This document shows positions 3,682 through 41,582 of a stretch of DNA of 45,555 nucleotides, in pieces. The stretch's first letter is position 1. The number at the start of each line of letters is the position of its first letter. The notes beneath the pieces were generated by a model. It was not told the origin of the DNA and ran no database searches. It saw nothing but the letters and a program-made list of their open reading frames with translations. Both the position numbers and the translations under genes were made by a program. The DNA is taken from the UHGV virus genome UHGV-2198558; one strand, 5' to 3'. Source of the stretch: a virus.

Positions 3682-3695
3682 AAGACCACGACCTT

Positions 3696-4253: not shown

Positions 4254-4258
4254 CTGCC

Positions 4259-5291: not shown

Positions 5292-5320
5292 ATTATAGCA
5301 CACAATCGGTGTTTTGTCAA
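5292..5320 (-). promoter_or_regulatory. Repressor-operon promoter (consensus sigma-70)
   Basis: Minus strand reads TTGACA, 17-nt spacer, TGcTATAAT: a perfect consensus. Confidence 0.6.
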
Positions 5321-5333
5321 TACAAAATTGCAC

Positions 5334-5362
5334 TTGCAATTCGTTTGACGGTGTGATATAAT
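5334..5362 (+). promoter_or_regulatory. Divergent rightward promoter
   Basis: TTGCAA, 17-nt spacer, TGaTATAAT; back-to-back with the repressor promoter. ATTGCA-type repeats (5274-5339) are candidate operator half-sites. Confidence 0.5.
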
Positions 5363-5563
5363 AGCAATGTCGGTATTCCGCCTACAGGAAAATGAGACCG
5401 AAGGCTGGTGCAGTGTGTCCGTCTTAAGGTGTGTGACAGGACAGACTGCCGGTCAGAGTACCGACAACTTCGCCATCAACCCACTTCGCCACGATAGATA
5501 TACAGAACAATAGAATGGAGCTAATGTTGGAAATACCATAAGTTGCGAAACAGGAGGGCGTAA

Positions 5564-7915: not shown

Positions 7916-8140
7916 GCCGCGGCATTCGGAGCATGGCAATTAGATCATTACATTTGTTAGTCAGGGCGCGCACTGGCGGACAGATGCTCATAGCGGAAAT
8001 AACATCACGATTTGGAGTCTGTATAGACTGACAAGGTGTATTTCGTGTGGACATCGTCCCCTGCGTGCCTTTTTCTCTGGGACAGCAGTCGCGTTATGGG
8101 CATCTGCCGCTTGGTGTGTTCCTTGCAGAAAGGAACGATT

Positions 8141-8863
8141 ATGGAAAACGCAAATGTTCAGAATGCTGCCGCTATCACCGATAAGACCACCCTCGGCGAA
8201 CTGCTTGCAATGCTTGACCTCGCTGATAAGGCAGGCAAGATGCCGACACCGAGAGAACTGTTTGAGACTGCCGGTTCGCCGATAGCCGATATGAATGGCT
8301 GCACTCTCTTCAGCAACGGCTTCGCCATCTATCAGAATGTCACTGGGCGCACTGTTGTCTGGCTGCCGTACTGCAAGAGCTTCACCTATTACTTCGGCAA
8401 GCTCCGTGATTCCGAGAAAGACACGCTGACAGAGACCTATGAGCTGCCGGATGGATTTCTGGAAACACAGCCGTGGGTGATCGCAGTAACACTGATCGGC
8501 GACCATCGTGTGGAGGCAAACAGCATGAACCGCACCGGCAGCCGCAAGGATACCACAGATTATGACAGCGCCGATAACGGCGATAAAGACGGTGATGCAG
8601 AGGAGGCTTTGGCAGATCCGTATCGCAGGGCATTCAACTGGTATGACGGACGCATGGGCGAGAATCCGCAGGATGCCGTGGAGCGCAGAGAGACACGCGA
8701 GGAGATGCTTGCAGACATGACGGACAAGCAGCGTGAAGCCTTTATTATGTACTTCAGGGATGGTATGACGCAGGAAGAGATTGCTTCATATATAGGGGTA
8801 AGCCGTGATTCCATAAATGACAGGCTTGAAGGTGCTTTGAAAAAAGCAAAAAAATATTTTTAG
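8141..8863 (+). CDS. Sigma-70 region-4-like HTH protein (putative phage transcription regulator)
   Basis: C-terminus LTDKQREAFIMYFRDGMTQEEIASYIGVSRDSINDRLEGALKKAKK resembles sigma region 4; no region 2 recognised. Start at ATG 8141 after GAAAGGAA. Confidence 0.65.
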   Translation: MENANVQNAAAITDKTTLGELLAMLDLADKAGKMPTPRELFETAGSPIADMNGCTLFSNGFAIYQNVTGRTVVWLPYCKSFTYYFGKLRDSEKDTLTETYELPDGFLETQPWVIAVTLIGDHRVEANSMNRTGSRKDTTDYDSADNGDKDGDAEEALADPYRRAFNWYDGRMGENPQDAVERRETREEMLADMTDKQREAFIMYFRDGMTQEEIASYIGVSRDSINDRLEGALKKAKKYF

Positions 8864-18253: not shown

Positions 18254-18338
18254 GATCATACTCTCCGTATGATCCGCACTGAAAAGACGACAAAGCGGCG
18301 ACAAAACGGTTACACCGCACTCTATGGAGGTGAAAACT

Positions 18339-18842
18339 ATGGCGCGTAAGAACAAACGCCTGAAAACAGAATACCACAGAGGTCTCGGTTTTGATCCGCG
18401 AAAGTATATGACTTCCTACTCCCACCAAACTCGCTGTGAATCAATTCCGACTCCCGACCGTGCTCCAAAGCGCGGCGATATCTGGTTTGCGCGGCTCGGC
18501 ACACATCCGAATTCCAGTGTGCAGGGCGGCACCCGTCCCGTTATCATCATTTCTAACGACCTCGGCAACGAACACGCTGACACCGTCAATGTTGTGCCGA
18601 TGACCAGACACCTGAAAAAGCCGGAGCTGCCTTGTCACACTCCGCTTTCTCCCGGCAGCATTACCGATAGCAGACAGCCGCTTGAACTGTCAATGGTGCT
18701 GGCGGAGCAGCTCACAACTGTCAGCAAGAACGCACTTCGCTATTATGCAGGTCATATTTCCGATGACGAAGCTATGAACCGCATCGAAACCGCTGTTATT
18801 GCGCAGCTCAGTCTTGAAAGGAGATATTCCAAATGCCTGTGA
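18339..18842 (+). CDS. MazF/PemK-like protein with a 48-aa basic N-terminal extension
   Basis: GDIWFARLGTHPNSSVQGGTRPVIIISND and NVVPMT parallel E. coli MazF GDLIWVDFDPTKGSEQAGHRPAVVLS and CVPCTT. GGAGGT RBS 7 nt before ATG 18339. Confidence 0.6.
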   Translation: MARKNKRLKTEYHRGLGFDPRKYMTSYSHQTRCESIPTPDRAPKRGDIWFARLGTHPNSSVQGGTRPVIIISNDLGNEHADTVNVVPMTRHLKKPELPCHTPLSPGSITDSRQPLELSMVLAEQLTTVSKNALRYYAGHISDDEAMNRIETAVIAQLSLERRYSKCL

Positions 18843-29544: not shown

Positions 29545-29776
29545 ATGTGCGGTCGTGACCGCTTACACAGAGATTTCTATGCTCAAGGGCGACGATCTGA
29601 AATATCTGTATGACTATCTTTCCGGCTTTATCGGCAGACCGGTGTATACACACGAGATTTCTGCTGTGGTGATGGCTTACAGAGAGCAGATCAGGGAGGA
29701 CTTCCTCGATCTGTGCAGGAACGCAAAGGAGGCGGATGATGGATCAGAAACACTTGACTCTCGGCAGCTTATTTGA
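29531..29776 (+). CDS. Hypothetical small protein
   Basis: GGGGAGGA RBS before ATG 29531; overlaps flanking methyltransferase genes. Confidence 0.4.
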   Translation: MTKHECAVVTAYTEISMLKGDDLKYLYDYLSGFIGRPVYTHEISAVVMAYREQIREDFLDLCRNAKEADDGSETLDSRQLI

Positions 29777-32339
29777 CGGCTCCGGTGGCTTTCCGCTTGG
29801 CGGCATCCTTGCAGGGATCGAGCCGAAGTGGAGCAGCGAAATTGAACCATTCCCGGTGCTTGTCACGCACAAGCGGCTGCCGCAGGTGAAGCACTACGGC
29901 GATGTATCCAAACTGAACGGAGCAGAGCTTCCGCCGGTGGATATCATCACCTTCGGCAGCCCGTGTCAGGATCTGTCCATAGCGGGCAAGCGCGCCGGAA
30001 TCCATGACGGTGATCGGTCAAACCTGTTCTTTCAGGCGATCCGCATCATCAAAGAAATGAGGGATGCAACAAATGGACGATATCCGCGATACTGCGTCTG
30101 GGAAAATGTCCCCGGCGCTTTCTCATCCAACGGAGGAAACGACTTCAAGGCTGTCCTCGAAGCAGTTATCGGAGTTAAAGAAAAAGGGATCGAGGTGCCT
30201 GCGCCTGAAAATCACAGATGGGCAAAATCAGACGTATATCTGGGAGACGGATGGAGCGTGGCTTACCGAGTTTTCGATGCTCAATACTGGGGTGTCCCCC
30301 AACGCAGAGCAAGAATCTACCTTGTCGCAGATCTTGCTGGTGGAAGTGCCGGAGAAGTATTATTTAAGTCCGAAGGCGTGTCTGGGTATACTCCGCAGGG
30401 CTTCCGTGCGTGGCAAGGAGCTGCCGGAGGTGCTGAAGAAGGCACTGGAGAGACAGGCGGGCGGTCTGACGCTGGAGGTGGAACCCTCTGCCTGAATACA
30501 CAGGGCAACAGCGGCGTCGGCATCACCGAGAACAAGGCTCTCGCACTGGTCGCACAGGATCATGGCAATCATCCGGCTGTGCTTCATGCGGTCGGTATCG
30601 ACGGCTACAATGCTGCGGTCACCGATGATACGGCAGCAACGCTTGGTGTGAACTGCGGAATGTCCACAGGCAGAAACGGTGTCCTGCAGGCGGCGGGATT
30701 TTCCACAGAACACAGTGCAAAAGCAAGGAGCATCGGCTACGAGGAAGAGGTATCTCCCACACTTCGAGCCGGTGTTGTTCCGGCGGCAATGGAGTTATAT
30801 GAAAATCATGGGCAGGACAGCAGATTCAGAGGACCTTTGGATGTAGCACAGCCTGTGACTGCTACCTACGGCATGGGCGGCAACAATCAGCCGCTTGTGG
30901 TAGAGAACAATCCCACGGACGGCAGAGCGAAGATCAATCCCGACGGTGTGTTTCAGACGCTCTGCGGACGAGCCGGAACAGGCGGAAACAACACGCCGCT
31001 TGTTGCTGAACCGGTCACGCTGAAAATCAGGTCGGGATGTGAGGGCGGTGGCAAGGGTGCTTTATGGCAGACCGACAAGTCTGCTACGCTCGGCACAAAC
31101 AATGACCAGAGTGTATTTGTTCCGTTCGTCAAGGGAACACGTCCGCACTCTGCTGAAGAGGGGCAAACATGGAAACCCGGCGAGGTCGCCAATACACTGA
31201 ATACCTTTGATGTCGGTGAAAGTCGCTGCAATGAACTTGTGGTGGAAGAGCCGCAGATCAGGGCTTTCGGTGTATGCAGCAAGCATTCCAATGCGATGAT
31301 GTCCGACAATCCGCACAGCGGATTCTATGAGGCGACCACAAGCAGAACGCTCGACCAAAGTGGTGGAAATTCTGTGACATCGAATCAGGGCGGCATCTGC
31401 GTGGTAGCACCTGCGCCTGAAACCTTCGATGTGCGTTTCACATCAGACGGTACAAAAAACGCTCGTGGGCATTGCTATCCGACAGACATCTCCCGATGCC
31501 TTGATACGAGCGAGGGATCGCCAGACTCGAATCACGGCGGTGTCGCTGTGGTGGCTCTTGAACCGGGGGCTGCATCACGTGTCGGCGGTCATGTATACAG
31601 TGACGGCAAAAGCGGTACGCTTCGAGCCAATGCCGGCGATAATCAGCAGGCTGTTGTGGTCGCCGAGCCGGAGACCTATGCTCTGCAAGGCTCGATGATC
31701 GGTCGTGCCGACAAGAACGGTCCGCAGGGTGATGGCATCAACGAGGATGTGTGCTTTACGCTCAATACATCGGACAGACACGCCATTGCCGCACCTGATC
31801 CGTCCTTCACAATTTCCCGCGACAACCATTTTGCCGTTTCGGAGGATGTATCCGTTACAGCCGTGGCAAGAGGCCCTGCGGCAGTCGCAGCACCGGCAGA
31901 CCACTATTGCACCAGTAAGAATTCGCATCATACGGTCGCCGCCCATGAGCAGGCAAACACGCTGGTCGCTTCCGACTGGAAGGATCCGCCGCTTGTGAAC
32001 GACCTTCCGAATGACGAGCCAGTATATATCGTTCGCCGCTTGACTCCGGTTGAGTGCGCCAGATTGCAGGGATTCCCTGACTGGTGGTGTGCCGACCTTG
32101 CAATTACTGATCCTTCCGATGAGGAGATCGCCTTCTGGACGGAGGTCTGGGAGACATGGCGGCAGGTCACAAATCCCAAGGGCAAGCCGAAAACGGAAAA
32201 GCAGATCCGCAAATGGCTGGCTGATCCGTACACGGATTCAGCGGAGTACAAGCTGTGGGGCAACGGTGTCTCAGAGCCGGTCGTATACTTCGTGCTTTCC
32301 GGCATCGCATGGGCAGCGCAGAGAGATACACAAAAGTGA
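29736..32339 (+). CDS. C5-cytosine DNA methyltransferase with an unusually long, repetitive target-recognition region
   Basis: Motif I LFDGSGGF, motif IV GSPCQDLSIAGKR, motif VI ENVPGA, motif X RRLTPVECARLQGFPDWW; about 550 aa between motifs VIII and IX with at least 8 TL-type motifs; 867 aa. Confidence 0.85.
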   Translation: MMDQKHLTLGSLFDGSGGFPLGGILAGIEPKWSSEIEPFPVLVTHKRLPQVKHYGDVSKLNGAELPPVDIITFGSPCQDLSIAGKRAGIHDGDRSNLFFQAIRIIKEMRDATNGRYPRYCVWENVPGAFSSNGGNDFKAVLEAVIGVKEKGIEVPAPENHRWAKSDVYLGDGWSVAYRVFDAQYWGVPQRRARIYLVADLAGGSAGEVLFKSEGVSGYTPQGFRAWQGAAGGAEEGTGETGGRSDAGGGTLCLNTQGNSGVGITENKALALVAQDHGNHPAVLHAVGIDGYNAAVTDDTAATLGVNCGMSTGRNGVLQAAGFSTEHSAKARSIGYEEEVSPTLRAGVVPAAMELYENHGQDSRFRGPLDVAQPVTATYGMGGNNQPLVVENNPTDGRAKINPDGVFQTLCGRAGTGGNNTPLVAEPVTLKIRSGCEGGGKGALWQTDKSATLGTNNDQSVFVPFVKGTRPHSAEEGQTWKPGEVANTLNTFDVGESRCNELVVEEPQIRAFGVCSKHSNAMMSDNPHSGFYEATTSRTLDQSGGNSVTSNQGGICVVAPAPETFDVRFTSDGTKNARGHCYPTDISRCLDTSEGSPDSNHGGVAVVALEPGAASRVGGHVYSDGKSGTLRANAGDNQQAVVVAEPETYALQGSMIGRADKNGPQGDGINEDVCFTLNTSDRHAIAAPDPSFTISRDNHFAVSEDVSVTAVARGPAAVAAPADHYCTSKNSHHTVAAHEQANTLVASDWKDPPLVNDLPNDEPVYIVRRLTPVECARLQGFPDWWCADLAITDPSDEEIAFWTEVWETWRQVTNPKGKPKTEKQIRKWLADPYTDSAEYKLWGNGVSEPVVYFVLSGIAWAAQRDTQK

Positions 32340-32416
32340 ACGCATAACGTGCCCGTTTTGAAACGATGAAACGAAAACTCCCGAATCTGCGTTACTTTGA
32401 TTTCGCAAAGATACAC

Positions 32417-32599
32417 TCATTCAGATTTCTTGTCTCCGCCAAGCTCGATCTTTCCGTGCTTTTCCTCATATTTTTCAATGCAGTCACGGATCAGGATCAG
32501 AACCTGACTGTTGGCAGAACGACCTTCGTAATCGGCAACAACGTGAAGTTTATCAAGCATCTCCTGTTCGATACGGATGGATACACTTTTAATAGCCAT
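32417..32599 (-). CDS. Ribbon-helix-helix (CopG/Arc-like) DNA-binding protein
   Basis: MAIKSVSIRIEQEMLDKL... beta-strand then helix pattern; AAGGA RBS; the only minus-strand gene in the 35-kb plus-strand block. Confidence 0.55.
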   Translation of the reverse strand: MAIKSVSIRIEQEMLDKLHVVADYEGRSANSQVLILIRDCIEKYEEKHGKIELGGDKKSE

Positions 32600-32712
32600 A
32601 AAACAACTTCCTTTCAGATATATTATGACTTTATTTTAGACCTGTTTTGTGGTATAATGTTTGAAATGGATATAAAGTGTATCTAAAATATATCTATAAG
32701 AAGTTGTACGAT

Positions 32713-33051
32713 ATGAAAATAGCAATTATTGGCTCACGGGGACTTCATGTGAATGACCTTGAACGGTATCTTCCGGAAGATGTCACAGAAATCGTCAGCG
32801 GAGGAGCAAGGGGCATTGATTCGGATGCGCGGGCATACGCACAGGCACACGGCATTCCGCTGAAGGAGTTTCTGCCGGATTATGAACGCTTCGGCAGGAG
32901 CGCCCCGCTGAAACGGAATCTTGAGATCATCGCTTATGCCGATGTGGTGCTTGCATTCTGGGACGGACAGTCACGCGGCACGAAATATGTGATAGACCAT
33001 TGCCGGGAACAGCACGTTCCGGTCAGGGTTTTCGCACCGAGAAAGAAATAG
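32713..33051 (+). CDS. SLOG/DprA-like Rossmann-fold protein
   Basis: IAIIGSRG...VSGGARGIDSDARAYA...ADVVLAFWDGQSRGT pattern; start uncertain (ATG 32713 or GTG 32677). Confidence 0.5.
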   Translation: MKIAIIGSRGLHVNDLERYLPEDVTEIVSGGARGIDSDARAYAQAHGIPLKEFLPDYERFGRSAPLKRNLEIIAYADVVLAFWDGQSRGTKYVIDHCREQHVPVRVFAPRKK

Positions 33052-33186
33052 TAATAAAGAAGCCATGCAGCAAATTGTGAACATTCTGATACTAAATCAG
33101 ATGTTCTGCCGCAGGGCTTCTTTCTATTCTGTACTATGCACAATCTAAAGGGCAGACACGCCCCGTACATTCTCCGTTTTACAGTC

Positions 33187-33215
33187 TTGCATTCCGGGGC
33201 AAAAGACGGTAATAT
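33187..33215 (+). promoter_or_regulatory. Cassette promoter 1
   Basis: TTGCAT, 17-nt spacer, TAATAT, followed by GTGAC leader. Confidence 0.5.
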
Positions 33216-33283
33216 GTGACTACGAAAACGCCGCAGCCCAACGCACAAGGCTGAGGGGCGGCAGTAAAAACGGAGGTAATCAT

Positions 33284-34192
33284 ATGGAAATCAAGTTCAA
33301 TATTGAAAAGAGCCAGCGCAAGGCACTGGCACAGAAAATCGGCGAGCTGACAGGAGCAGAGGTCAAGTACCTCGGTGTACCGGGCTGCAGATACCAGATC
33401 GACTTCTTCACCCTGGACAAAAACGCAGTCCTCAGTTTCAGCGACCGCATCGACACAGATATCGTGGAGAAGGTACTGAATGGGCTTGCAGAGGCAGGAT
33501 ATGAAAGCAAAACAGTAGCACCGCCGGAAGAAACGGATGCTTCGGCTGAATCAGAGCCGGATATCCCTGACGAACCGAGCAGCGGATTTCCGCTGCTCGC
33601 AAGCATCAGCTTCCCGATTGCAGAGCACACGGTGCAGAGCCTTACAAACCTTATCTGCATGATCCACTCCCGCGGCGCACTTCTCAGCAAGGCGACCGGC
33701 GGACAGTTCTTCGCAGACAAGAGCCTCGCCGATGCGATCCTCGATGACAAGACCTTCCGCAGCATCCACGAGCTTATCGCCTACATCAGAGTATGGGAGG
33801 AAACGAATCCCGAACTGAAGGGCATCCGTTTCGCCGATGACAAGCTGATCTTTGACGGCTTCGGTGCAGCGCAGGATGCCGAAACGGTGCAGACCTTCAC
33901 CAAGCTCGCCACAGCCATGAACAGGATGGCGATCACGCAGAAACGTGTGCAGGCAAAGGATGTCGATGACAGCAACGAAAAGTACGCACTCCGCATCTGG
34001 CTGATCCGCCTTGGGCTGAACGGCGCAGACTGCAAGGTTGACCGCAAGCGCCTCATGGCTCCGCTTTCCGGACACACCGCATTCCGCAACGATGCGGAGC
34101 GTGTGCGCTGGGAGGCAAAGCAAAAGGCAAAGCGTGATGCTGCCAGAACCGAACTGACCGAGGAGGATGAAAACGATGCAGTTTCCGAATGA
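33284..34192 (+). CDS. Hypothetical protein sharing a C-terminal module with the amidoligase
   Basis: CGGAGG RBS; C-terminus KYALRIWLIRLGLNGADCKVDRKRLMAPLSGHTAFRN aligns with the amidoligase C-terminus. Confidence 0.6.
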   Translation: MEIKFNIEKSQRKALAQKIGELTGAEVKYLGVPGCRYQIDFFTLDKNAVLSFSDRIDTDIVEKVLNGLAEAGYESKTVAPPEETDASAESEPDIPDEPSSGFPLLASISFPIAEHTVQSLTNLICMIHSRGALLSKATGGQFFADKSLADAILDDKTFRSIHELIAYIRVWEETNPELKGIRFADDKLIFDGFGAAQDAETVQTFTKLATAMNRMAITQKRVQAKDVDDSNEKYALRIWLIRLGLNGADCKVDRKRLMAPLSGHTAFRNDAERVRWEAKQKAKRDAARTELTEEDENDAVSE

Positions 34193-34424
34193 AAGACAGC
34201 TCAGAGCCTTGCGGGAGCGTTATCCCGCAGGCACCCGCATCCGACTGAAGCATATGGATGACCCTTATGCACCCGTACCGCCCGGCACGGTCGGCGAGGT
34301 TCAGATGGTTGATGACGGCGGCAACATACACATGGTCTGGGAGAATGGCAGAACGCTCTCCCTTATAGACGGTGTCGATGATTTCCAGGTCATTTCTGAC
34401 CGCAATGGGGGCTCCGGAAAATAA
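34176..34424 (+). CDS. Small conserved protein (DUF4314-like by recall)
   Basis: GAGGAGG RBS 9 nt before ATG 34176; GTVGEVQMVDDGGNIHMVWENGRTLSLIDGVDDF. Confidence 0.45.
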   Translation: MQFPNERQLRALRERYPAGTRIRLKHMDDPYAPVPPGTVGEVQMVDDGGNIHMVWENGRTLSLIDGVDDFQVISDRNGGSGK

Positions 34425-34537
34425 GAGATCCTATTCCATTGTATCCGAGTATACCATAGAATTTCAAGTATATCAAGTGTACACATACACCAGATATGAG
34501 CAATGTATTTTCCTCGATATTCTGTGGTTTTAGCGGC

Positions 34538-34566
34538 TTGCTATATCCTCCGAAAGACGGTAATAT
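34538..34566 (+). promoter_or_regulatory. Cassette promoter 2
   Basis: TTGCTA, 17-nt spacer, TAATAT, then conserved leader GTGACACAACGGAAGGGCAAACGCCCACCGAAAA. Confidence 0.55.
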
Positions 34567-34621
34567 GTGACACAACGGAAGGGCAAACGCCCACCGAAAA
34601 ACCGAATCGGAGGATACCAAA

Positions 34622-35566
34622 ATGACTGAGAAAACCGCACAGCAGATCAACAGAATGAAGGAGCAGACCATCGGGGTTGAGATCGAGATGAACAACATCA
34701 CCCGCAAGGCTGCCGCAAAGCTCGCCGCCGACTTCTTCGGCACGAACCGCTACGAGGACACGGCCTGCCGCAACGGCTACGAAACCTACAGTGCTTGGGA
34801 CGCACAGGGACGCGAGTGGAAATTCCAGAAGGACGTCAGCATCGCAGGCCCCGACAGCGAAAAGTGCGAACTGGTCACACCGATCCTGCACTACGCAGAC
34901 ATCGAAACCCTGCAGGAGCTTGTGAGAAGGCTCAGAAAGGCAGGAGCGCGCAGTGATTACACGCGGGGATGTGGAGTCCACTGCCACATTGGAGCCCAGG
35001 GACACACACCGCAGAGCCTCAGAAACCTCGCAAACCTTATGGCAAGCCACGAAACCCTGATCGCCGAGGCAATCAGAGTAGACCAGAGCAGAATGCACCG
35101 CTACTGCAGAACAGTTGACCCGAGATTCCTTGAACAGCTCAACCGCAAAAAGCCCACCACGATGGCACAGCTTGCGGACATCTGGTACGGCGCACAGGGC
35201 TGCGAATACGGCAGAACCCACCACTACAACGACAGCCGCTATCACATGCTCAACCTCCACGCTACCTTCACCAAAGGCACGGTCGAGTTCAGACTTTTCC
35301 AGTTCGCACCGCCTTCCAACGGCAAGCAGAACGGGCTCCACGCAGGCAAGCTCAAGAGCTACATTCAGCTCTGCCTCGCAATGAGCCAGATGGCAAAGGA
35401 CCTGCGGAGCGCCAGCCCCAAGGAACAGCAGAAGGAAAACAAAAAGTTCGCCATGCGGACTTGGCTGATGAGAATGGGATTCATCGGGGATGAATTCGCA
35501 ACGGCGAGAGAGGTCCTCACTGAGAACCTTACGGGCGACAACAGCTTCCGCTTCGGCAGATCTTAA
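34622..35566 (+). CDS. Amidoligase_2-family enzyme (putative peptide/metabolite ligase)
   Basis: N-terminal GVEIE motif; 314 aa; immediately upstream of an AIG2-like cyclotransferase gene, the conserved neighbourhood I recall for this family in Firmicutes phages. Confidence 0.65.
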   Translation: MTEKTAQQINRMKEQTIGVEIEMNNITRKAAAKLAADFFGTNRYEDTACRNGYETYSAWDAQGREWKFQKDVSIAGPDSEKCELVTPILHYADIETLQELVRRLRKAGARSDYTRGCGVHCHIGAQGHTPQSLRNLANLMASHETLIAEAIRVDQSRMHRYCRTVDPRFLEQLNRKKPTTMAQLADIWYGAQGCEYGRTHHYNDSRYHMLNLHATFTKGTVEFRLFQFAPPSNGKQNGLHAGKLKSYIQLCLAMSQMAKDLRSASPKEQQKENKKFAMRTWLMRMGFIGDEFATAREVLTENLTGDNSFRFGRS

Positions 35567-35831
35567 AGGCCTGCCCTTCGGGGCGGAAGAACAAGCGGAA
35601 CGGCACGGCGGCGCACACAGCCGCCACGGTCTCGGCTCTCGCCTCGGTCGGTGCTTCTGCTTCGCAGAGGTTGCCACTGGCAACCCGCACCCCCGTGTGT
35701 GGCGGAAAGGGTATCCTCCGAATCGGTATCCCATCTCAGTCAACCGCGCCACACAGCGCAAATGTAGGCAAGGCATAAAATGCACAACATACGGCACAGA
35801 ATCGCCCTCGATGATCTGTTCATTTACCCGC

Positions 35832-35860
35832 TTGATAATGCCGCCGAAATGAGTTAACAT
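35832..35860 (+). promoter_or_regulatory. Cassette promoter 3 (diverged leader)
   Basis: TTGATA, 17-nt spacer, TAACAT. Confidence 0.45.
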
Positions 35861-35899
35861 AGCACTACCGCAAGGAAAAAACGCAAAGGAGAACATAGC

Positions 35900-36367
35900 A
35901 TGAACAAGAAAAAATACTACATAGCCTACGGCAGCAACCTCAACATCCGCCAGATGCGATTCCGCTGCTCAGGCGCAAAGCCCATCGGCATTTCCGCGAT
36001 TCCTGACTACGAACTGCTCTTCAAGGGCAGCAAGACGGGAGCGTACCTCACCATCGAGCCGAAGGACGGCGGGCTTGTTCCGGTCGCCGTGTGGGAAGTG
36101 ACAGCCGACGATGAGAAGCACCTCGACATCTACGAGGGCTACCCGAACTTCTACTACAAGAAGGAAGTCCGCCTGCCAATCAGGCTGGCAAACGGCAAGA
36201 CCAAAAAGGTCACGGCATTTGTCTACATCATGCACGAGGAGCGTGAGATTGCGATCCCGTCAATGACCTACATCCGCACCTGCGAGGAAGGCTACCGCAA
36301 CTTCGGCTTCGACACCAAGTTCCTTGATGCCGCCTACGAGATCAGCGCAAAGGAGGTACAGCGATGA
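35900..36367 (+). CDS. AIG2-like / gamma-glutamyl cyclotransferase family protein
   Basis: YIAYGSNLNIRQM N-terminal motif; AAAGGAG RBS; 155 aa. Confidence 0.75.
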   Translation: MNKKKYYIAYGSNLNIRQMRFRCSGAKPIGISAIPDYELLFKGSKTGAYLTIEPKDGGLVPVAVWEVTADDEKHLDIYEGYPNFYYKKEVRLPIRLANGKTKKVTAFVYIMHEEREIAIPSMTYIRTCEEGYRNFGFDTKFLDAAYEISAKEVQR

Positions 36368-36564
36368 AAGACCGCAACAAAGAGCCGCACATCTGCCCGA
36401 AATGCGGGCAGGCGTACACCGCCCGACCAGCTCTTTCCCGCGTGGATAACAGCCCAATCTGCCCCGACTGCGGAACGCGTGAAGCGCTTGAAAGCATCGG
36501 CGTCGGACGCGAGGAACAGGACAAGATTCTCGGCATCATCCACGAGAAGTACGAAGGCGAATAA
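36364..36564 (+). CDS. Small zinc-ribbon protein
   Basis: ATGA overlap with the AIG2 stop; CPKCG...CPDCG. Confidence 0.5.
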   Translation: MKDRNKEPHICPKCGQAYTARPALSRVDNSPICPDCGTREALESIGVGREEQDKILGIIHEKYEGE

Positions 36565-36572
36565 GTCGGCAC

Positions 36573-36594
36573 AAAGGGGCGTTACAGCCCCTTT
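36573..36594 (+). terminator. Hairpin, possible weak terminator
   Basis: aaaggggc / gccccttt stem with gttaca loop; weak U-tract. Confidence 0.35.
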
Positions 36595-36635
36595 CCGCAT
36601 TCTCAGGGATAACTTATCCCCCACTTTCCGGGCGT

Positions 36636-36655
36636 GACACGGCGCGTTCTGGCGC
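36636..36655. repeat. Cassette boundary repeat (short copy)
   Basis: gacacggcgcgttctggcgc shares the ACACGGCGCG core with copies at 38314, 39198 and 40524. Confidence 0.45.
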
Positions 36656-36721
36656 AAACTATGTACCTGTTCAGCTTGCTGAAAACGGCGATTCTTCTAC
36701 GATTTATTTTGCACATAGGCG

Positions 36722-36750
36722 TGGACTTTTCAGGCAAAAGGCGGTAGTAT
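36722..36750 (+). promoter_or_regulatory. Cassette promoter 4
   Basis: TGGACT, 17-nt spacer, TAGTAT, then conserved leader. Confidence 0.5.
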
Positions 36751-36807
36751 GTGACACAACGGAAGGGCAGACAGCCCACCGGAATTCATAACATGGAGGA
36801 TACGAAC

Positions 36808-37278
36808 ATGAACGACAGCTACTTTGAGGAGATGACCTTCCAGTGCGCCGCCTATGAACGCGCCAAAAAGGAGCGCGCCGAGCGCAAGGCTCAGATTGCC
36901 GAAGCCCACGGCTACGACAGCCCGGAGGTGGACGCTTGGTACGCTGAGGAGAAGGCGGCAGGTCCTTACCCCTACAGCGGCAATGAGATGAAAGCCTACT
37001 GGGTGTACAAGATGCGCCGCGAGAACGACGGTGACGAGTTCGAGATGAGCGATTACTGCTGGGACAAGGAATTCCACGATTTCATCGAAACGCTCCGCAA
37101 GCTAGGCATCACCGAGTTCACGATCACCAATCAGAGCACGGCGCTGATGGAGAACATCTACGGATTTATTGCAGAAGGCTGCACGATGGTCGGAACGCAC
37201 ACCATCACCAAGAAGAGCCTGCGCTGGGGCGAGGAAGAATACGAAACGGCACAGGGCATCCTTTTCAAGGTGAACTGA
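36808..37278 (+). CDS. Hypothetical protein
   Basis: GGAGGA RBS 7 nt before ATG 36808; 156 aa. Confidence 0.6.
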   Translation: MNDSYFEEMTFQCAAYERAKKERAERKAQIAEAHGYDSPEVDAWYAEEKAAGPYPYSGNEMKAYWVYKMRRENDGDEFEMSDYCWDKEFHDFIETLRKLGITEFTITNQSTALMENIYGFIAEGCTMVGTHTITKKSLRWGEEEYETAQGILFKVN

Positions 37279-37286
37279 TATCGACA

Positions 37287-37322
37287 GGAGCAGGGCTTCG
37301 GCTCTGCTCCCCTCCCCCTTTT
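37287..37322 (+). terminator. Rho-independent-like terminator
   Basis: 10-bp stem ggagcagggc / gctctgctcc with ttcg tetraloop, then a C/T-rich tract ending TTTT. Confidence 0.5.
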
Positions 37323-37395
37323 CCTCATGTGTAAATCCTACAATACGAAAGGCTGAGATCGGCGATTCTTCTACGTTTTATTTTGCACATAGGCG

Positions 37396-37424
37396 TGGAC
37401 TTATCAGCAGGATCATGGTAATAT
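37396..37424 (+). promoter_or_regulatory. Cassette promoter 5
   Basis: TGGACT, 17-nt spacer, TAATAT, then conserved leader. Confidence 0.5.
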
Positions 37425-37479
37425 GTGACACAACGGAAGGGCAGAACGCCTACCGAAAAACGAAACGGAGGATAACACC

Positions 37480-37800
37480 ATGAACCCCTACACACTGAGA
37501 AAGAGCCTGAACCTGATTGATGCCAACACGGCGATCACCCGCGAGGACTTCGAGAGCCTCTTCTGCAAGACTGCAGAGCGTGTCACCTTTACCTTCAACG
37601 GTTGGGACGGCAAGAGCTATGATGGCGAGAGGCGCAGCGGTTACGTTTACCGCACCATCATCGAGGGCTACGAGAATGTGAGATTCGTTAAGGTCGGCAA
37701 GGGACTGCATTACATCGATGAGGACAGCAGCATTACCGAGAAGGCTACGGGCATCGCCCACAAGGAAGCAGAGTGGCTGGTCGATGTGAAGAGAGCATAA
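37480..37800 (+). CDS. Hypothetical protein
   Basis: CGGAGGA RBS; 106 aa. Confidence 0.6.
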   Translation: MNPYTLRKSLNLIDANTAITREDFESLFCKTAERVTFTFNGWDGKSYDGERRSGYVYRTIIEGYENVRFVKVGKGLHYIDEDSSITEKATGIAHKEAEWLVDVKRA

Positions 37801-37866
37801 GCAAAACAGCGGAGCCCTTCCTGCGGGGAGGGCTTACCGCAGAAAAAAACATGGAGGTTTACGAAC

Positions 37867-38250
37867 ATGAGTACGAATTCAAGAGTCGGAATTCTGCATC
37901 AGGACGGCGTCACGGAGACAATCTACTGCCATTGGGACGGCTACCCCGAACACCAGATGCCCATCCTCACCGAGCATTATAACACCGCCGAGAAGGTCAA
38001 GGCACTGCTTGCCCTTGGAGACATCAGCATCCTCGGCGAGCGCCTTGCTCCCGATGCGGATGAGCCGCACAGCTTTGAAAAGCCTGCCGATGGTGTGACG
38101 GTTGCTTACCACCGCGACCGCAAAGAGCCGATGCAGCCTGCGGTCACCCACAAGAGCGTTGTTTCCCTGATGAGCGATGACTGGGGCATTCCGTATTACT
38201 ACCTTTTCGATGAGGAAAAAGGAGCATGGCTTCCGCCGACCGAGGACTGA
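37867..38250 (+). CDS. Hypothetical protein
   Basis: GGAGG RBS 9 nt before ATG; 127 aa; no own promoter, co-transcribed with 37480. Confidence 0.6.
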   Translation: MSTNSRVGILHQDGVTETIYCHWDGYPEHQMPILTEHYNTAEKVKALLALGDISILGERLAPDADEPHSFEKPADGVTVAYHRDRKEPMQPAVTHKSVVSLMSDDWGIPYYYLFDEEKGAWLPPTED

Positions 38251-38313
38251 TAGGTTCAGCCCTGCGGGGCTGACTTGCCCCACGTTGTCCTTTGTGCGGT
38301 TTTCCTGCGATAA

Positions 38314-38366
38314 GCTTGCCCCTGCGGAAAGCCGCCTCACACGGCGCGTTTGTGTGCCTCCTGTGG
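38314..38366. repeat. Cassette boundary repeat
   Basis: cttgcccctgcggaaagccgcctcacacggcgcgtttgtgtgcctcctgtggg. Confidence 0.5.
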
Positions 38367-38430
38367 GCTTGGTGCTATGTATACAACAAATGGCGCAGAT
38401 ACGCCGATTTTGTTCTGAACATTTAGCCGC

Positions 38431-38459
38431 TTGCTATTCCGGAAAGATCATGGTAATAT
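38431..38459 (+). promoter_or_regulatory. Cassette promoter 6
   Basis: TTGCTA, 17-nt spacer, TAATAT, then conserved leader. Confidence 0.5.
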
Positions 38460-38515
38460 GCTACACAACGGAAGGGCAAACGCCCACCGAATACAAAACA
38501 CGGAGGTAAACCACC

Positions 38516-38898
38516 ATGACAAAGAAGGAAATGAAAGCCGCAGTTGCCAAGCTGAAGATGCTGCAGAACGGCAAAGCCGCCCTTGAGGGAATGACCGAAG
38601 CGGACTGCCTTGAGCTTTTCGGGATCAGCAGAGCGCAGGCACTTGCAAACACAAACGCCGCCCTTGCCAAAACCGAGCAGGAGATTTNNNNNNNNNNNNN
38701 NNNNNNNNNNNNGAGCATCCGCTGACAGGCATCGACAAACAGCTCTTCGAGATCGCAGCAAAGCACCTGATCACGGTGCAGGAGCGCGGAGACCTTGAAG
38801 CCCGCCACTGCGACAGCGAGGACTTCATCGAGGGTTCGGTCTGGGGGCTGGAAGCCGCCCTCAAGGATGCCTACGAGGCAGGACGCAAGAGCAAGTAA
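38516..38898 (+). CDS. Hypothetical protein interrupted by an assembly gap
   Basis: CGGAGGT RBS and ATG 38516; coding resumes after the N-run and ends at TAA 38896-38898. Frame across the gap cannot be determined. Confidence 0.4.
38688..38712. other. Assembly gap (25 N)
   Basis: Run of n characters in the sequence. Confidence 0.99.
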
Positions 38899-38960
38899 CC
38901 AAACGGAACAGCGCAGCCCTTCCGCAGGGAGGGGCTGCCAATCCCGAAGGAGGAAAGAAC

Positions 38961-39140
38961 ATGGATACATACGCACAGCTTGAAATGCTGACCGCAGTCA
39001 TCGCAAACCTGTCGGCCACGGGAACATGGACGGAGCGAGAAGTGATGGAAACGCTGCTGGATGTCTTTGAACCGAAGGAGCTTGAACAGCTCGGCTACGG
39101 CGACTGCGTGAACGCATACTTGGAAGAGTACGGCGGATAG
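38961..39140 (+). CDS. Small acidic protein (59 aa), below the ORF-track length cutoff
   Basis: AAGGAGGAAA RBS 7 nt before ATG 38961; MDTYAQLEMLTAVIANLS...EEYGG, stop TAG 39138-39140. Confidence 0.5.
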   Translation: MDTYAQLEMLTAVIANLSATGTWTEREVMETLLDVFEPKELEQLGYGDCVNAYLEEYGG

Positions 39141-39197
39141 CGACGACACACGCACCACGTTGCCTCGTGTGGGGCGGTGCCGGGGAGATGCGTACAG

Positions 39198-39240
39198 CTT
39201 GCCCCTGCGAAAAGCCGCCTTACACGGCGCGTTCTGGCGC
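39198..39240. repeat. Cassette boundary repeat
   Basis: cttgcccctgcgaaaagccgccttacacggcgcgttctggcgc. Confidence 0.5.
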
Positions 39241-39310
39241 GTCCTATACGATGTACAATTCCGCCCGACTTCCCGCCTCATGTTTGTCACATTTATTTTG
39301 CAGACAGACG

Positions 39311-39339
39311 TGGACTTTTCTGCGAAAAGACGGTAATAT
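39311..39339 (+). promoter_or_regulatory. Cassette promoter 7
   Basis: TGGACT, 17-nt spacer, TAATAT. Confidence 0.5.
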
Positions 39340-39386
39340 GTGACTACCGCAAGAGAAGCGGAATCAATCAAAAGGAGCGAATCTAC

Positions 39387-39740
39387 ATGAAAATTCTGGT
39401 ATGCGAACCCGGCAAGCACCCCTACGTCAAGGACATCGAGTCGGGGCTGGAGAACCTTCAGCACGAGGTGGACGGACTGATTCAGGCCCTCTACCCATTT
39501 TCCGAAGAGGCGGCTGTTGTGTGCAACGAAGAAGGGCTGTTCCGCGATGACCTCGAATGGAACAGAACGGTCGATCCCTATGGTCCGATCAAGGGAACAT
39601 TCTTCATTTGTGGGCTCGGCTTTGAAGATTTTACAGGACTGACCGATGAACAGATCGAAAAGTACACTAAGCTCTTCTGGCCTCCTGAGCTTTTCATCCC
39701 GACACCGAACGGCATGGTGGTGCTTCACATTGTGGAATGA
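39387..39740 (+). CDS. DUF3846-like protein
   Basis: AAAGGAG RBS; MKILVCEPGKHPYVKDIE...YPF...VVCNEEG...GTFFICG pattern, recalled from mobile-element proteins of Firmicutes. Confidence 0.55.
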   Translation: MKILVCEPGKHPYVKDIESGLENLQHEVDGLIQALYPFSEEAAVVCNEEGLFRDDLEWNRTVDPYGPIKGTFFICGLGFEDFTGLTDEQIEKYTKLFWPPELFIPTPNGMVVLHIVE

Positions 39741-39843
39741 CCGCAACAGGGGCAGGGCTTCGGCTCTGCTCCGCACTATTCCCCGGTCATAATGTACACA
39801 ACTGAACGCCGAAAAATGCAGAAATGATCGTGATTACTCACGC

Positions 39844-39872
39844 TTGATAATGTAGGCAAGAAGAGTTATACT
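39844..39872 (+). promoter_or_regulatory. Cassette promoter 8
   Basis: TTGATA, 17-nt spacer, TATACT; leader hairpin variant gggcggaaagccc. Confidence 0.5.
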
Positions 39873-39929
39873 GTGTACAACGGAAGGGCGGAAAGCCCAG
39901 CCGAAAACGAAAATGCGGAGGTACACACC

Positions 39930-40109
39930 ATGAAAACGAAGCAGGAACTGATCGAGAAGGCAAAGAAAGAGTGGGGCGAGACTTGGAACGAGGGCATGAT
40001 CGAGTACGATGCCGAGTACAACGAGTACATCGTCTGGGTAGGCAAGCCGGACATCTACAAAGCCTTCTTCGATGCCGACACCCTCAGATGCATTGGCACG
40101 AAGTGCTGA
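39930..40109 (+). CDS. Small hypothetical protein (59 aa)
   Basis: GCGGAGGT RBS; followed by a ccgccc-ttcg-gggcgg hairpin. Confidence 0.5.
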   Translation: MKTKQELIEKAKKEWGETWNEGMIEYDAEYNEYIVWVGKPDIYKAFFDADTLRCIGTKC

Positions 40110-40164
40110 GAACAACCGCCGCCCTTCGGGGCGGCACAACACCAATACTAAGGAGGACATTTAC

Positions 40165-40437
40165 ATGAGCGAGAACACAGAAAAGCGCGATGCAGCCGAA
40201 GAACTAGAACTTACCGATGCACAGGCAGACCGCAACGATGACATCTACGAGGCAGCTTTTGAATTCTGCAAGGTGCTGACCGAGAACCCCGACCTCGAAT
40301 GGGACATGGCGTTCCTCGGTGAGATCGCCGACCTTGCCGCTGGCATCATGACCGAGCAGGGACACAAGGTGCGGTTCCCCAGTGTGGTCACCGAGCAGGA
40401 CGGCACGCAGTACATTGAAGAATACTACGGCGGCTGA
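40165..40437 (+). CDS. Small highly acidic protein (90 aa)
   Basis: AAGGAGG RBS before ATG 40165; roughly 23 Asp/Glu against about 6 basic residues. Confidence 0.55.
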   Translation: MSENTEKRDAAEELELTDAQADRNDDIYEAAFEFCKVLTENPDLEWDMAFLGEIADLAAGIMTEQGHKVRFPSVVTEQDGTQYIEEYYGG

Positions 40438-40523
40438 TCGGCAAAACGGAGCAGTCCTTCTGCGGAGGGGCTGTTCCACGCCACGTTCGCTTGTGTGGGG
40501 GGCTTACGGCTTTCTGCGGATAT

Positions 40524-40575
40524 CTTGCCCCGCGATAAAAGCCGCCCACACGGCGCATTTGTGTGCCTCCTGTGG
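40524..40575. repeat. Cassette boundary repeat
   Basis: cttgccccgcgataaaagccgcccacacggcgcatttgtgtgcctcctgtgg. Confidence 0.5.
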
Positions 40576-40638
40576 CAAGGCATAATATGTACAACAACCG
40601 ACAAAAAATCGCCTTGCACATTCTGGTAGTTTAGCCGC

Positions 40639-40667
40639 TTGATATATCTGCCGAAAAGAGTTATAGT
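40639..40667 (+). promoter_or_regulatory. Cassette promoter 9
   Basis: TTGATA, 17-nt spacer, TATAGT; leader variant with cgggaaaccg hairpin. Confidence 0.5.
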
Positions 40668-40723
40668 GTGTACAACGGAACGGGAAACCGAGCCGAAAAC
40701 TACGAAAGAACGAGGTAAACACT

Positions 40724-40960
40724 ATGTGGCACGAAGGCACGATTCTGGCACCGACCAAGGAAGGCAAGACGGTGGTTCACTACTGGGCAAAGGTCTACGA
40801 CGAGGGCAGCCAGTACGGCATCAACGAGGGCAGAATCAGTAAACTGACACTCAAGGAGAATGGCAAGGTCATCTACAACTATGACAGAGGCGAGGATGTA
40901 CCCGAGCAGAACGAGGCTGCGGAGATTGCCCTTGCGATCCTGATGTACGAGTACAAGTAA
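40724..40960 (+). CDS. Small hypothetical protein (78 aa)
   Basis: ORF directly downstream of cassette promoter 9 and its leader; weak SD (ACGAGG). Confidence 0.5.
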   Translation: MWHEGTILAPTKEGKTVVHYWAKVYDEGSQYGINEGRISKLTLKENGKVIYNYDRGEDVPEQNEAAEIALAILMYEYK

Positions 40961-41048
40961 ATAGAACGGTCGGTAGGCGGTAGCATTAAGCCGCCCATCC
41001 AAACCAAGACGGACACACATATAAATTCAAGGTGGATATACATAGGAG

Positions 41049-41077
41049 AGGCTTGCAGCACGCAGGCCTTTTCTTTA
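41049..41077 (+). terminator. Rho-independent terminator closing the cassette array
   Basis: 8-bp stem aggcttgc / gcaggcct (one G-U), 5-nt loop, then TTTTCTTT. Confidence 0.65.
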
Positions 41078-41108
41078 TGCAGATTTTTTGAGAAAAGGAG
41101 TGATGCGG

Positions 41109-41582
41109 ATGGCTCAGAGAGGCAGAAAACCGACGCCGACAGCAATCAAGGAACTGGAAGGCAATCCCGGAAAACGACCGCTGAATGATGCAGAGCCGAA
41201 GCCGGAACGCAAGGCACCGCCCTGTCCGAAGTGGCTGGAGCCCGAAGCAAAAAAGGAATGGCGCAGGCTGTCAAAGCAACTGGAGCAGATTGGTGTGCTG
41301 ACCGAGGTCGATCAGGCGGCATTCGCATCCTACTGTCAGGCATACGCACGATGGAAAGAAGCCGAGGAATTCATGACCCAGCACGGCACGATCGTAAAAA
41401 CAAAATCAGGTTACTGGCAGCAGGTTCCGCAGGTATCCATTGCGCAAACTTATCTGAAGATCATGAACAAGATCGCAGAGCAGTTTGGCCTGACCCCGGC
41501 GGCAAGAAGCCGTATCACTGCCGGCGCAGATATGAAAAACGCTGCCGTTGACGATATGGATGAACTTCTCGGAGGTGGCTGA
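41109..41582 (+). CDS. terS: Terminase small subunit (P27-family-like)
   Basis: MAQRGRKPTPTAIKELEGNPGKRPLN N-terminus; AAGGAG RBS 8 nt before ATG 41109; stop overlaps the terL start. Confidence 0.8.
   Translation: MAQRGRKPTPTAIKELEGNPGKRPLNDAEPKPERKAPPCPKWLEPEAKKEWRRLSKQLEQIGVLTEVDQAAFASYCQAYARWKEAEEFMTQHGTIVKTKSGYWQQVPQVSIAQTYLKIMNKIAEQFGLTPAARSRITAGADMKNAAVDDMDELLGGG

Follow-up and report, generated by a model that had tools for sequence, protein, structure and literature searches.

Organization of the module

The window analysed here (the whole stretch of 45,555 nucleotides) belongs to a phage, with a CI-like repressor, a PolA/D5/SNF2 replication module and TerS/TerL, and the repressor indicates that this phage is temperate. 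In the region bounded by the DNA methylases and the terminase lie five open reading frames, all of which were confirmed on the + strand (Table 1). The initial annotation had described them as an amidoligase/AIG2-like cyclotransferase/zinc-ribbon module, a description that the analysis supports overall.

Table 1. Features of the module in the window, in 5' to 3' order.
Feature	Position	Strand	Protein size	Details
Promoter-like/leader cassette, 5' of p302	33175–33283	+		TTGCAT-N17-TAATAT, leader, GGAGG; one of nine aligned copies; repeat families D8 and D12
p302, predicted dead amidoligase paralog (pseudo-amidoligase)	33284–34192	+	302 aa	
DUF4314 small protein	34176–34424 (longest ORF from 34167)	+	82 aa (85 aa)	Pfam DUF4314, E = 7e-29
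Promoter-like/leader cassette, 5' of amidoligase	34513–34621	+		TTGCTA-N17-TAATAT, GTGACACAACGGAAGGGCAAACGCCC leader, GGAGG-N8-ATG; repeats D1, D2 and D8
Amidoligase_2, predicted intact carboxylate-amine ligase	34622–35566	+	314 aa	Pfam
Spacer with GC-rich hairpins and third promoter-like cassette	35567–35899	+		Cassette at 35791–35899, TTGATA-N17-TAACAT
γ-Glutamyl cyclotransferase-like protein (GGACT/AIG2 fold)	35900–36367	+	155 aa	Pfam GGACT; PHROG 2520
Zinc-ribbon protein	36364–36564	+	66 aa	CPxCG...ICPDCGTREAL; PHROG 2945, E = 4e-23

The notion that each gene has a cassette promoter of its own holds for p302, the amidoligase and the γ-glutamyl cyclotransferase-like protein (GGCT), but not for the genes of DUF4314 and the zinc-ribbon protein; these are translationally coupled to the gene before them, so that the five genes can be read as three promoter-cassette units, namely p302 with DUF4314, the amidoligase, and GGCT with the zinc-ribbon. 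The probable start of DUF4314, at 34176, gives a 17-nt overlap with p302 and lies 9 nt after a ribosome-binding site (GAGGAGG); the two genes overlap in 113 of 119 loci, with a mode of −17 nt. The coupling of the zinc-ribbon to GGCT, already proposed in the initial annotation, is seen as an ATGA overlap of stop and start with AAGGAGG 7 nt upstream, and the two genes overlap or abut in 116 of 134 loci. At the junction between amidoligase and GGCT no overlap occurs (0 of 137 loci) and the median spacer measures 97 nt.

The nine aligned copies of the cassette precede the three genes named above and six further genes downstream, and repeat D6 of the spacer before GGCT is found again at 40574–40663. 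The cassette is thus real as a repeat and putative as a promoter; a generic sigma-70 scan gave no enrichment relative to shuffled sequences (7 found, 4.9 ± 1.9 expected). Nor is the repeated leader a known RNA family: Rfam returned nothing at gathering thresholds in the whole window, and a single chance-level match at E ≤ 1 over 32300–41200.

The amidoligase and its paralog

The assignment of the third gene to Amidoligase_2 (PF12224) is borne out by profile search, with a score of 189.7 bits (cutoff 22, E = 1.1e-55) over profile positions 1–244 of 245. Its predicted model (pLDDT 87.5) matches glutamate-cysteine ligases (GCL), glutamine synthetases (GS) and PafA/Dop, which places it in the GS/GCL-like fold of carboxylate-amine ligases, at only 7–14% identity to these fold neighbours; sequence and profile searches of the PDB gave no match, even at E ≤ 10. 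Residues E20, E22, E83, H120, H122, E222 and R224 are invariant among 72 sequences, including relatives at 25–59% identity, and the ExE, E, HxH and ExR motifs that they form are those expected, by analogy, to bind metal and ATP. Taken together, motifs and model indicate that the protein is most likely an intact ATP-dependent carboxylate-amine ligase. Its C-terminal helical domain (aa ~240–310) is specific to the family.

The pairing of ligase and GGCT in phages was already known; what is new here is the nature of the 302-aa neighbour. This protein, p302, is a homolog of the amidoligase along most of its sequence (hhalign probability 99.8%, E = 2e-29), and across 69 sequences its catalytic residues are lost: E20 is replaced by K, R or T, E22 by N or H, H120 by T, C or S, H122 by S and R224 by P or D, while E83 and R163 are deleted. 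Given these losses and the lack of any match to the Pfam Amidoligase_2 model, p302 is a homolog of the ligase and not a functional ligase, that is, by its sequence, a full-length and catalytically dead paralog. It evolves much faster than the ligase and retains in common with it only the C-terminal domain. This domain recurs in ~2,500 clusters (50% identity level), mainly of p302-like proteins for which there is no Pfam model. In GenBank records p302 is labelled "virulence-related protein".

The protein also has an acidic disordered loop (aa 79–106) and an acidic tail with a final Glu, a residue found in three of five distant p302 proteins. The tail overlaps the start of DUF4314, so its conservation may reflect a constraint imposed by the overlap. 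Searches of the PDB by sequence and profile returned nothing meaningful for DUF4314. The pair p302 and DUF4314 is also found in Streptococcus and Clostridium botulinum phages that carry neither ligase nor GGCT, and its role is therefore not necessarily linked to the ligase.

In five loci (L126, L158, L161, L162 and L164) the amidoligase gene seemed to contain an insertion of ~400 nt; this proved to be an artefact in which the C-terminal domain of the adjacent p302 was joined to the ligase match, and the amidoligase matches in two pieces in phage records have the same origin.

The γ-glutamyl cyclotransferase and the zinc-ribbon protein

The AIG2/GGCT-like assignment is likewise upheld by the profiles of Pfam (GGACT, PF06094, 49.8 bits against a cutoff of 22.8, E = 6.3e-13; AIG2_2, 29.6 bits against 27, E = 9.6e-7) and by PHROG 2520 (E = 1e-53). 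The protein aligns to human GGCT (E = 1.9e-4) in such a way that AYGSNL (residues 9–14) and Glu79 fall on the YGSNL motif and on the glutamate of QEG in the human enzyme. AYGSNL is present in 64 of 64 family members and Glu79 in 63, so the catalytic signature appears intact and cyclotransferase activity is predicted.

In the zinc-ribbon protein, cysteines C11, C14, C33 and C36 are invariant in the family. Its matches to zinc-ribbon models are sub-threshold in Pfam and in NCBIfam, where the five proteins of the module have no other match, and PDB sequence and profile searches gave only generic zinc-finger matches. A terminal Glu is present in 41 of 50 distinct sequences, whose tails read YEGE, YIPE, RQPE and similar.

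Distribution and conservation

Evidently, ligase and GGCT travel together in related phages, as the initial annotation had anticipated: 41 phage records carry both, against ~0.04 expected by chance (with 47 and 45 positives in 50,697 phage records). In bacterial loci with good flanks, GGCT and the zinc-ribbon each accompany the ligase in 47 of 48 cases. This trio is kept while its flanks vary (YAcAr is present in 11, DUF7698 in 16 and DUF3846 in 31 of 80 loci), and it persists through changes of gene order (L007–L011 and others). There are also signs of cassette-wise recombination, with zinc-ribbons that are 70% identical where the ligases are 97% identical, and 91% where the ligases are 90%. 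The two enzymes can occur apart, the ligase without GGCT in Taranis-like phages and GGCT without the ligase in Bacillus phage G and a cyanophage.

The module in this form is very common, with at least 593 matches in IMG/VR and at least 425 matching stretches in a one-genome-per-species bacterial collection. In plasmids six weak or partial matches were found, none of them in a mobilisable replicon; matches so few and weak imply that this is not a general module of mobile elements. The five genes form a conserved accessory module that belongs to temperate phages infecting gut and rumen Clostridia; among annotated carriers, the closest are phages of Ca. Heliusvirales, a widespread and ancient lineage of the human gut (PMC11283538), and the paper that describes them does not mention the module. 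The exteins of the TerL of the window, unlike the closest homologs of the module, are most similar (70–72%) to Streptococcus phages of the Javan/phi-m46.1 type.

Comparison with known systems

The amidoligase–AIG2 pairing that the initial annotation likened to a neighbourhood of Firmicutes phages is indeed on record, both in published annotations and in PHROGs. Amidoligase/GGCT cassettes of phages go back to a prediction of 2009 (Iyer et al., 2009, as cited in PMC5498523, PMC11945000 and PMC11318856), and podoviruses of the LUZ24/phiEco32/PSA-HP1 type are credited with such a "peptidoglycan modification cassette" (Iyer et al., 2009; Hardies et al., 2013, as cited in PMC5498523 and PMC11945000). 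In the literature searched there was neither an experimental characterisation of a phage amidoligase/GGCT cassette nor biochemical work on a single Amidoligase_2 protein. Like the podovirus cassette, the module combines a phage-encoded Amidoligase_2 and a γ-glutamyl cyclotransferase among early or accessory genes, with a predicted function. The podovirus cassette, however, also has an ATP-grasp ligase, a class-II glutamine amidotransferase and a COOH-NH2_lig protein, all three of which are absent both from the ~40 window ORFs that were scanned and from the flanks annotated in five related phages. The partners here are instead the dead ligase paralog, DUF4314 and the zinc-ribbon, the hosts are Gram-positive Clostridia, the phage is temperate, and the ligase is distant from its podovirus counterpart (PHROG 7469, E = 2e-8). 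The GATase does occur together with a distant amidoligase in an Arthrobacter phage.

Closer likenesses are found in prophages phi13-alpha and phi13-epsilon of Clostridium clostridioforme LM41, where two "amidoligase" ORFs (PHROG 2443) flank a single gene and GGCT (PHROG 2520) comes next (PMC11318856), and in Terrisporobacter phage TPDSL_ph1 (PP197246), in which the same module is annotated. The order is that found here, p302, DUF4314, amidoligase and GGCT. These reports are annotations only and are silent on the dead state of one "amidoligase", the zinc-ribbon, the coupling of DUF4314 and the layout in three units.

Among better-known enzymes, members of the GCL/YbdK (GCS2) and GS families are far larger than the 314-aa ligase, which differs from them also by a C-terminal domain that it has in common only with p302-like proteins. 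With the PafA/Dop–Pup system the similarity is one of fold only: there is no Pup-like protein, no GGE or GGQ terminus and no proteasome context, and no module protein matches the Pfam model Pup_ligase. Pup is a small disordered tag that ends in GGE or GGQ, whereas the zinc-ribbon is predicted to be folded and its tails lack GG[EQ]. The LysX–LysW system differs in that LysX is an ATP-grasp enzyme, a class absent from the window, while the ligase here has the GS fold; LysW, moreover, has a strictly conserved acidic C-terminus with Glu as its last residue. In butirosin biosynthesis (BtrJ/BtrG), a ligase adds a γ-glutamyl protecting group that a GGCT-fold enzyme later removes. The logic is alike, an amide ligase paired with a γ-glutamyl cyclotransferase on the same γ-glutamyl amide, but BtrJ is an ATP-grasp enzyme, and the carrier-protein and transferase steps that separate the two reactions in that pathway have no equivalents here.

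Proposed function

The reading that we prefer, and to which we give about an even chance, is that ligase and GGCT form a write/erase (or protect/deprotect) pair for a γ-glutamyl amide on an amine-bearing target, with the zinc-ribbon, p302 and DUF4314 as partners. The amidoligase would activate the γ-carboxylate of glutamate as an acyl-phosphate and join glutamate to an amine; GGCT would act on the same type of bond, releasing the γ-glutamyl group as 5-oxoproline and freeing the amine, and the target would lie in the infected cell or in the lysogen. The zinc-ribbon could be a stoichiometric partner of GGCT, and p302, which retains the C-terminal domain, would together with DUF4314 probably serve as a non-catalytic partner, adaptor or decoy. 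In this scheme glutamate as the acyl substrate is suggested by the distant fold neighbours, and the γ linkage, the passage of the ligase product to GGCT and the roles of the three other partners are inferred as well. There are arguments against it. With near-identical cassettes in front of both, writer and eraser would run as a futile cycle, barring separation in time or space or action on different molecules; each enzyme can occur without the other; and p302 with DUF4314 occurs where both are missing. The anatomy of ligase, GGCT, zinc-ribbon, dead paralog and DUF4314 turns "function unknown" into concrete experiments.

The prevailing hypothesis for such cassettes, proposed for the LUZ24/phiEco32-type podoviruses, is a role in the cell wall (PMC5498523, PMC11945000 and PMC11318856, all citing Iyer et al., 2009). 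Applied here, it would place the target amine in peptidoglycan or its precursors (e.g., the ε-amine of Lys or mDAP) and the benefit in superinfection exclusion. The module is specific to phages, with next to nothing in plasmids, and a function that protects the lysogen is plausible given that the phage is temperate; yet the podovirus partners are missing, Pfam matches and reading of the sequences give no hint of secretion or membrane anchoring, and the hypothesis is a prediction in podoviruses too. We regard it as unlikely. The same two activities could instead drain the host, turning glutamate and ATP into 5-oxoproline, ADP and Pi while the amine is recycled, so that ATP and glutamate are depleted or 5-oxoproline builds up in the service of host takeover or abortive infection. 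A futile cycle of GCL and GGCT is known from human 5-oxoprolinuria, the two genes are tightly linked here, and their common cassette type suggests co-expression. Such a drain would, however, leave the conserved zinc-ribbon, dead paralog and DUF4314 unexplained and, if constitutive, be costly to the lysogen, and none of the five proteins matches a defence system in PADLOC; it is improbable in our view.

A protein could also be the substrate. In the narrower form, the ligase would join the C-terminal Glu of the zinc-ribbon (or of p302) to a target amine, as in PafA–Pup or LysX–LysW. The prevalence of a final Glu in the zinc-ribbons is suggestive and not universal, since 9 of the 50 lack it, including close relatives of Glu-ending ones (HRHMQE versus HRHTQG); among distant p302 proteins it is no more regular, and there the overlap with DUF4314 confounds conservation. 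The match to LysW (E = 0.32) is not significant, and the Pup-like motif and Pup_ligase match are wanting. Canonical GGCT, furthermore, cannot cyclise a Glu whose α-amine is in a peptide bond and would have no role in the scheme. The terminal Glu was accordingly rejected as a tag signature and kept as a rival only, one to which we lend little credence. No greater weight is given to protein-level γ-glutamyl conjugation in the wider sense, in which the GS-fold ligase either attaches that Glu to host or phage amines or γ-glutamylates lysines of a host protein recognised by the fast-evolving p302, with GGCT as the eraser; if true, no tagging system of this type would have been known from a phage before, and it would represent a novel way to manipulate the host or counter its defences. 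Finally, the genes might be independent morons whose only link is their proximity within a variable accessory array. Separate cassettes, cassette-wise recombination and the existence of sub-modules on their own would fit, but the cohesion of the trio amid varying flanks and gene orders and a co-occurrence far above chance already disfavour this and make it highly improbable.

Few accessory genes of the carrier phages are as conserved as the ligase, which shows 76–98% identity against 30–60% in its neighbours, so it probably does something of importance to the phages that infect dominant gut Clostridia.

Gene content and family assignment

The five ORFs of the module lie on the + strand where the initial annotation had placed them, including the two upstream of the ligase: p302 (302 aa) and a small protein that belongs to Pfam family DUF4314 (E=7e-29). 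The family identities proposed for the two enzymes also hold: the 314-aa protein (AmLig) matches the Pfam Amidoligase_2 HMM (E=1.1e-55) and phrog_2443, 'amidoligase enzyme' (E=4e-113, PHROGs), while the 155-aa protein (GGCT) matches the GGACT/AIG2 HMMs of Pfam (E=6.3e-13 and 9.6e-7) and phrog_2520, 'gamma-glutamyl cyclotransferase' (E=1e-53). Human GGCT can be aligned to the window protein (E=1.9e-4), with YGSNL and the Glu of the catalytic position kept, and within the family AYGSNL is present in 64/64 members and Glu79 in 63/64. Judged from their sequence signatures, AmLig and GGCT both look catalytically competent. The zinc-ribbon matches of the 66-aa protein (ZnR) in Pfam are all sub-threshold; its supposed translational coupling to GGCT is borne out by an ATGA shared by the GGCT stop and the ZnR start, preceded by an AAGGAGG site. 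The most likely start of DUF4314 is 34176, 9 nt 3' of GAGGAGG, which gives a 17-nt overlap with p302.

Coordinates of the module and of other features (in the window unless a phage is named)
Feature	Coordinates	Strand	Remarks
HATPase_c_3 (GHKL ATPase) protein	78-1589	-	503 aa; left window edge, adjoins lysogeny region
Sigma-70 region-4 protein	8036-8863		
PemK/MazF-like toxin domain protein	18324-18842		E=9e-22; replication module, between SNF2 helicase and D5 primase-helicase
C-5 cytosine DNA methylase	29736-32339		867 aa
Arc-like ribbon-helix-helix protein	32417-32599	-	AT-richer patch, head of accessory array
YAcAr/SLOG-domain protein	32677-33051	+	weak PsyrA/ShosA-like PADLOC matches; after Arc-like gene
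p302	33284-34192	+	
AmLig	34622-35566	+	
GGCT	35900-36367	+	
ZnR	36364-36564	+	
Cassette copies (ends, about)	33283, 34621, 35899, 36807, 37479, 38515, 39390, 39925, 40720		
TerL	41582-44248		888 aa; LAGLIDADG_3 at aa 303-369
p302-like 'virulence-related protein' + DUF4314	3470-4448		Streptococcus phage Javan630 (L081); methylase-to-terminase position
p302-like 'virulence-related protein'	4776-5498		C. botulinum phage CWou-2020b (L086); methylase-to-terminase position

Conservation of the module

The initial annotation matched the pairing of amidoligase and GGCT to a known neighbourhood, and for phages it is indeed an existing prediction (Iyer 2009, as relayed by PMC5498523, PMC11945000 and PMC11318856). 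Prophages of C. clostridioforme LM41 carry two 'amidoligase' ORFs, with one gene between, and then GGCT (PMC11318856), and annotated records of Ca. Heliusvirales and Terrisporobacter phages show the same arrangement. No experimental work on the amidoligase and GGCT module was found in the literature searched.

The pair is clearly co-conserved in related phages. Among 50,697 GenBank phage records, 47 encode a full-length amidoligase, 45 a GGCT and 41 both, against a chance expectation of ~0.04. The amidoligases without GGCT are one truncated fragment and the Taranis-like clade, the most distant (<=39% identity); the records with GGCT but no amidoligase are those of Bacillus phage G and of one cyanophage, plus a truncated fragment. 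The two genes are still joined at 42% amidoligase identity (L085), and the pair is essentially absent from plasmids.

AmLig has >593 relatives in IMG/VR, and of the best 80 of these loci (76-98% identity) 75 contain GGCT, 74 p302, 74 DUF4314 and 72 ZnR, the absences falling on truncated contigs. The flanks of these 80 loci vary (YAcAr in 11, DUF7698 in 16, DUF3846 in 31), and where the order is instead p302-DUF4314-GGCT-AmLig-ZnR the set is still intact. A bacterial collection with one genome per species yielded another 80 loci, from Oscillospiraceae, Ruminococcus, Lachnospiraceae, Christensenellaceae, Anaerofustis, Ihubacter and others; the 48 flanked on either side by 2.5 kb or more contain GGCT (47/48), ZnR (47/48), p302 (41/48) and DUF4314 (38/48). 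Some relatives have two GGCT paralogs within the module (L020, L042 and L043, about 4500-5018; L088, L154, L160).

p302, a predicted inactive paralog of the ligase

p302 has zero matches in Pfam or NCBIfam. It matches PHROG 2443 in the same profile region as AmLig (E=1.3e-43); BLASTP aligns the two proteins only along a C-terminal stretch of ~70 aa (E=4e-10). The p302 and amidoligase family profiles align along 244 columns with a probability of 99.8% (E=1.8e-29), and the p302-family HMM picks up bona fide amidoligases nearly end to end (best E=3e-38). By these comparisons p302 is a paralog of AmLig, predicted to be catalytically dead.

The shared C-terminal domain, used as query, retrieved 2,520 clusters (50% identity level) from a library of 1.84 billion proteins; 8 of 50 sampled clusters are Amidoligase_2 and ~40, without a Pfam domain, are p302-like. 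Pfam has no model for this p302-like family despite the ~2,500 clusters with the domain, and in GenBank its members are labelled 'virulence-related protein'. Phages of Streptococcus and C. botulinum that lack both amidoligase and GGCT carry such proteins, with DUF4314 or alone, so the dead-paralog unit has an independent existence. As far as could be found, p302 as a dead paralog, the shared C-terminal domain, ZnR and DUF4314 as coupled partners and the conserved layout in three units are described here for the first time.

Junctions, cassettes and mosaicism

This layout follows from the junctions. GGCT and ZnR overlap or directly adjoin each other in 116/134 loci, and p302 overlaps DUF4314 in 113/119. 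DUF4314-AmLig and AmLig-GGCT never overlap, their spacers having medians of 161 and 97 nt, respectively; the module thus consists of three units, [p302+DUF4314], [AmLig] and [GGCT+ZnR].

Nine promoter-like/leader cassettes precede accessory genes between 33175 and 40720. Each has a -35-like element (TTGCTA/TTGATA, or a GTGGACT variant), ~17 nt, a -10-like element (TAATAT/TAGTAT/TATACT) and a leader conserved as GTGAC(A)CAACGGAAGGGCA..GCC and containing a small hairpin, followed by GGAGG-N8-ATG. The initial annotation gave every gene its own cassette; the cassettes are present, but each stands before either a single accessory gene or a gene pair. Rfam has no match to them, and their layout is reminiscent of T4-type phages, in which promoter-stem-loop cassettes are shuffled. 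The phage-encoded sigma-70 region-4 protein might read these putative promoters. A run of 25 N (38688-38712; assembly gap or masked) lies within a small ORF of the accessory array (38516-38725).

Across the related loci (L001-L167) compared with the window, ZnR identity is ~70% where AmLig is ~97% identical, yet ~91% where AmLig is ~90%. p302 falls to ~36% at ~90% AmLig identity and to ~30% at ~76%; in these loci GGCT and ZnR keep ~61-91% identity and DUF4314 ~46-68%. p302 thus evolves far faster than AmLig, or is swapped by recombination. The module is mosaic cassette by cassette, and the identity patterns suggest recombination at the repeated intergenic cassettes.

Proposed function

The data establish family and fold membership, intact motifs, linkage and the coupling of genes. 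The best-supported reading makes AmLig and GGCT a write/erase or protect/deprotect pair whose target is an amine: in the manner of its fold neighbours, AmLig would make a gamma-glutamyl amide via an acyl-phosphate intermediate, and GGCT would cyclise this gamma-glutamyl group to 5-oxoproline, releasing the amine. Glutamate as acyl donor, the gamma linkage and a substrate common to both enzymes are what we infer, as is every role given to ZnR, p302 and DUF4314.

For the cassettes of podoviruses, the accepted working hypothesis is modification of peptidoglycan for superinfection exclusion; the partners found there (ATP-grasp, GATase, COOH-NH2_lig) are absent from the window, and we consider it improbable here. 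Somewhat less probable still is a deliberate futile cycle in which AmLig and GGCT would drain Glu and ATP. We give similarly little credence to a protein tag or carrier system built, like Pup/PafA and LysW/LysX, on a C-terminal Glu, here that of ZnR or p302: this residue ends 41/50 ZnR and 60/64 p302 sequences, but the others lack it, the p302 tail overlaps DUF4314, and GGCT chemistry is unfit for the task, since a canonical GGCT cannot cyclise a Glu whose alpha-amine is peptide-bonded. Chance adjacency of the genes, by far the least probable reading, is ruled out by the co-occurrence data.

The rest of the phage genome

The window represents a temperate phage, with genes for a CI-like HTH/S24 repressor, DUF2800, an Enc34-type SSB, PolA, SNF2, a D5 primase-helicase, MetK, NrdD/NrdG, three DNA methylases, TerS and TerL. 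In tblastn, TerL aligns with Streptococcus phage TerL in two pieces (70-72% identity, ~60% of the query), and its insertion, which contains the LAGLIDADG domain, looks like an intein or homing endonuclease. The C-5 cytosine methylase is unusually long, with methylase motifs at both ends and, between them, a long Gly/Ala/Ser-rich region without a Pfam match. The Arc-like protein might act as a regulator or represent a separate moron, and the HATPase_c_3 protein may be part of a host or prophage defence gene.
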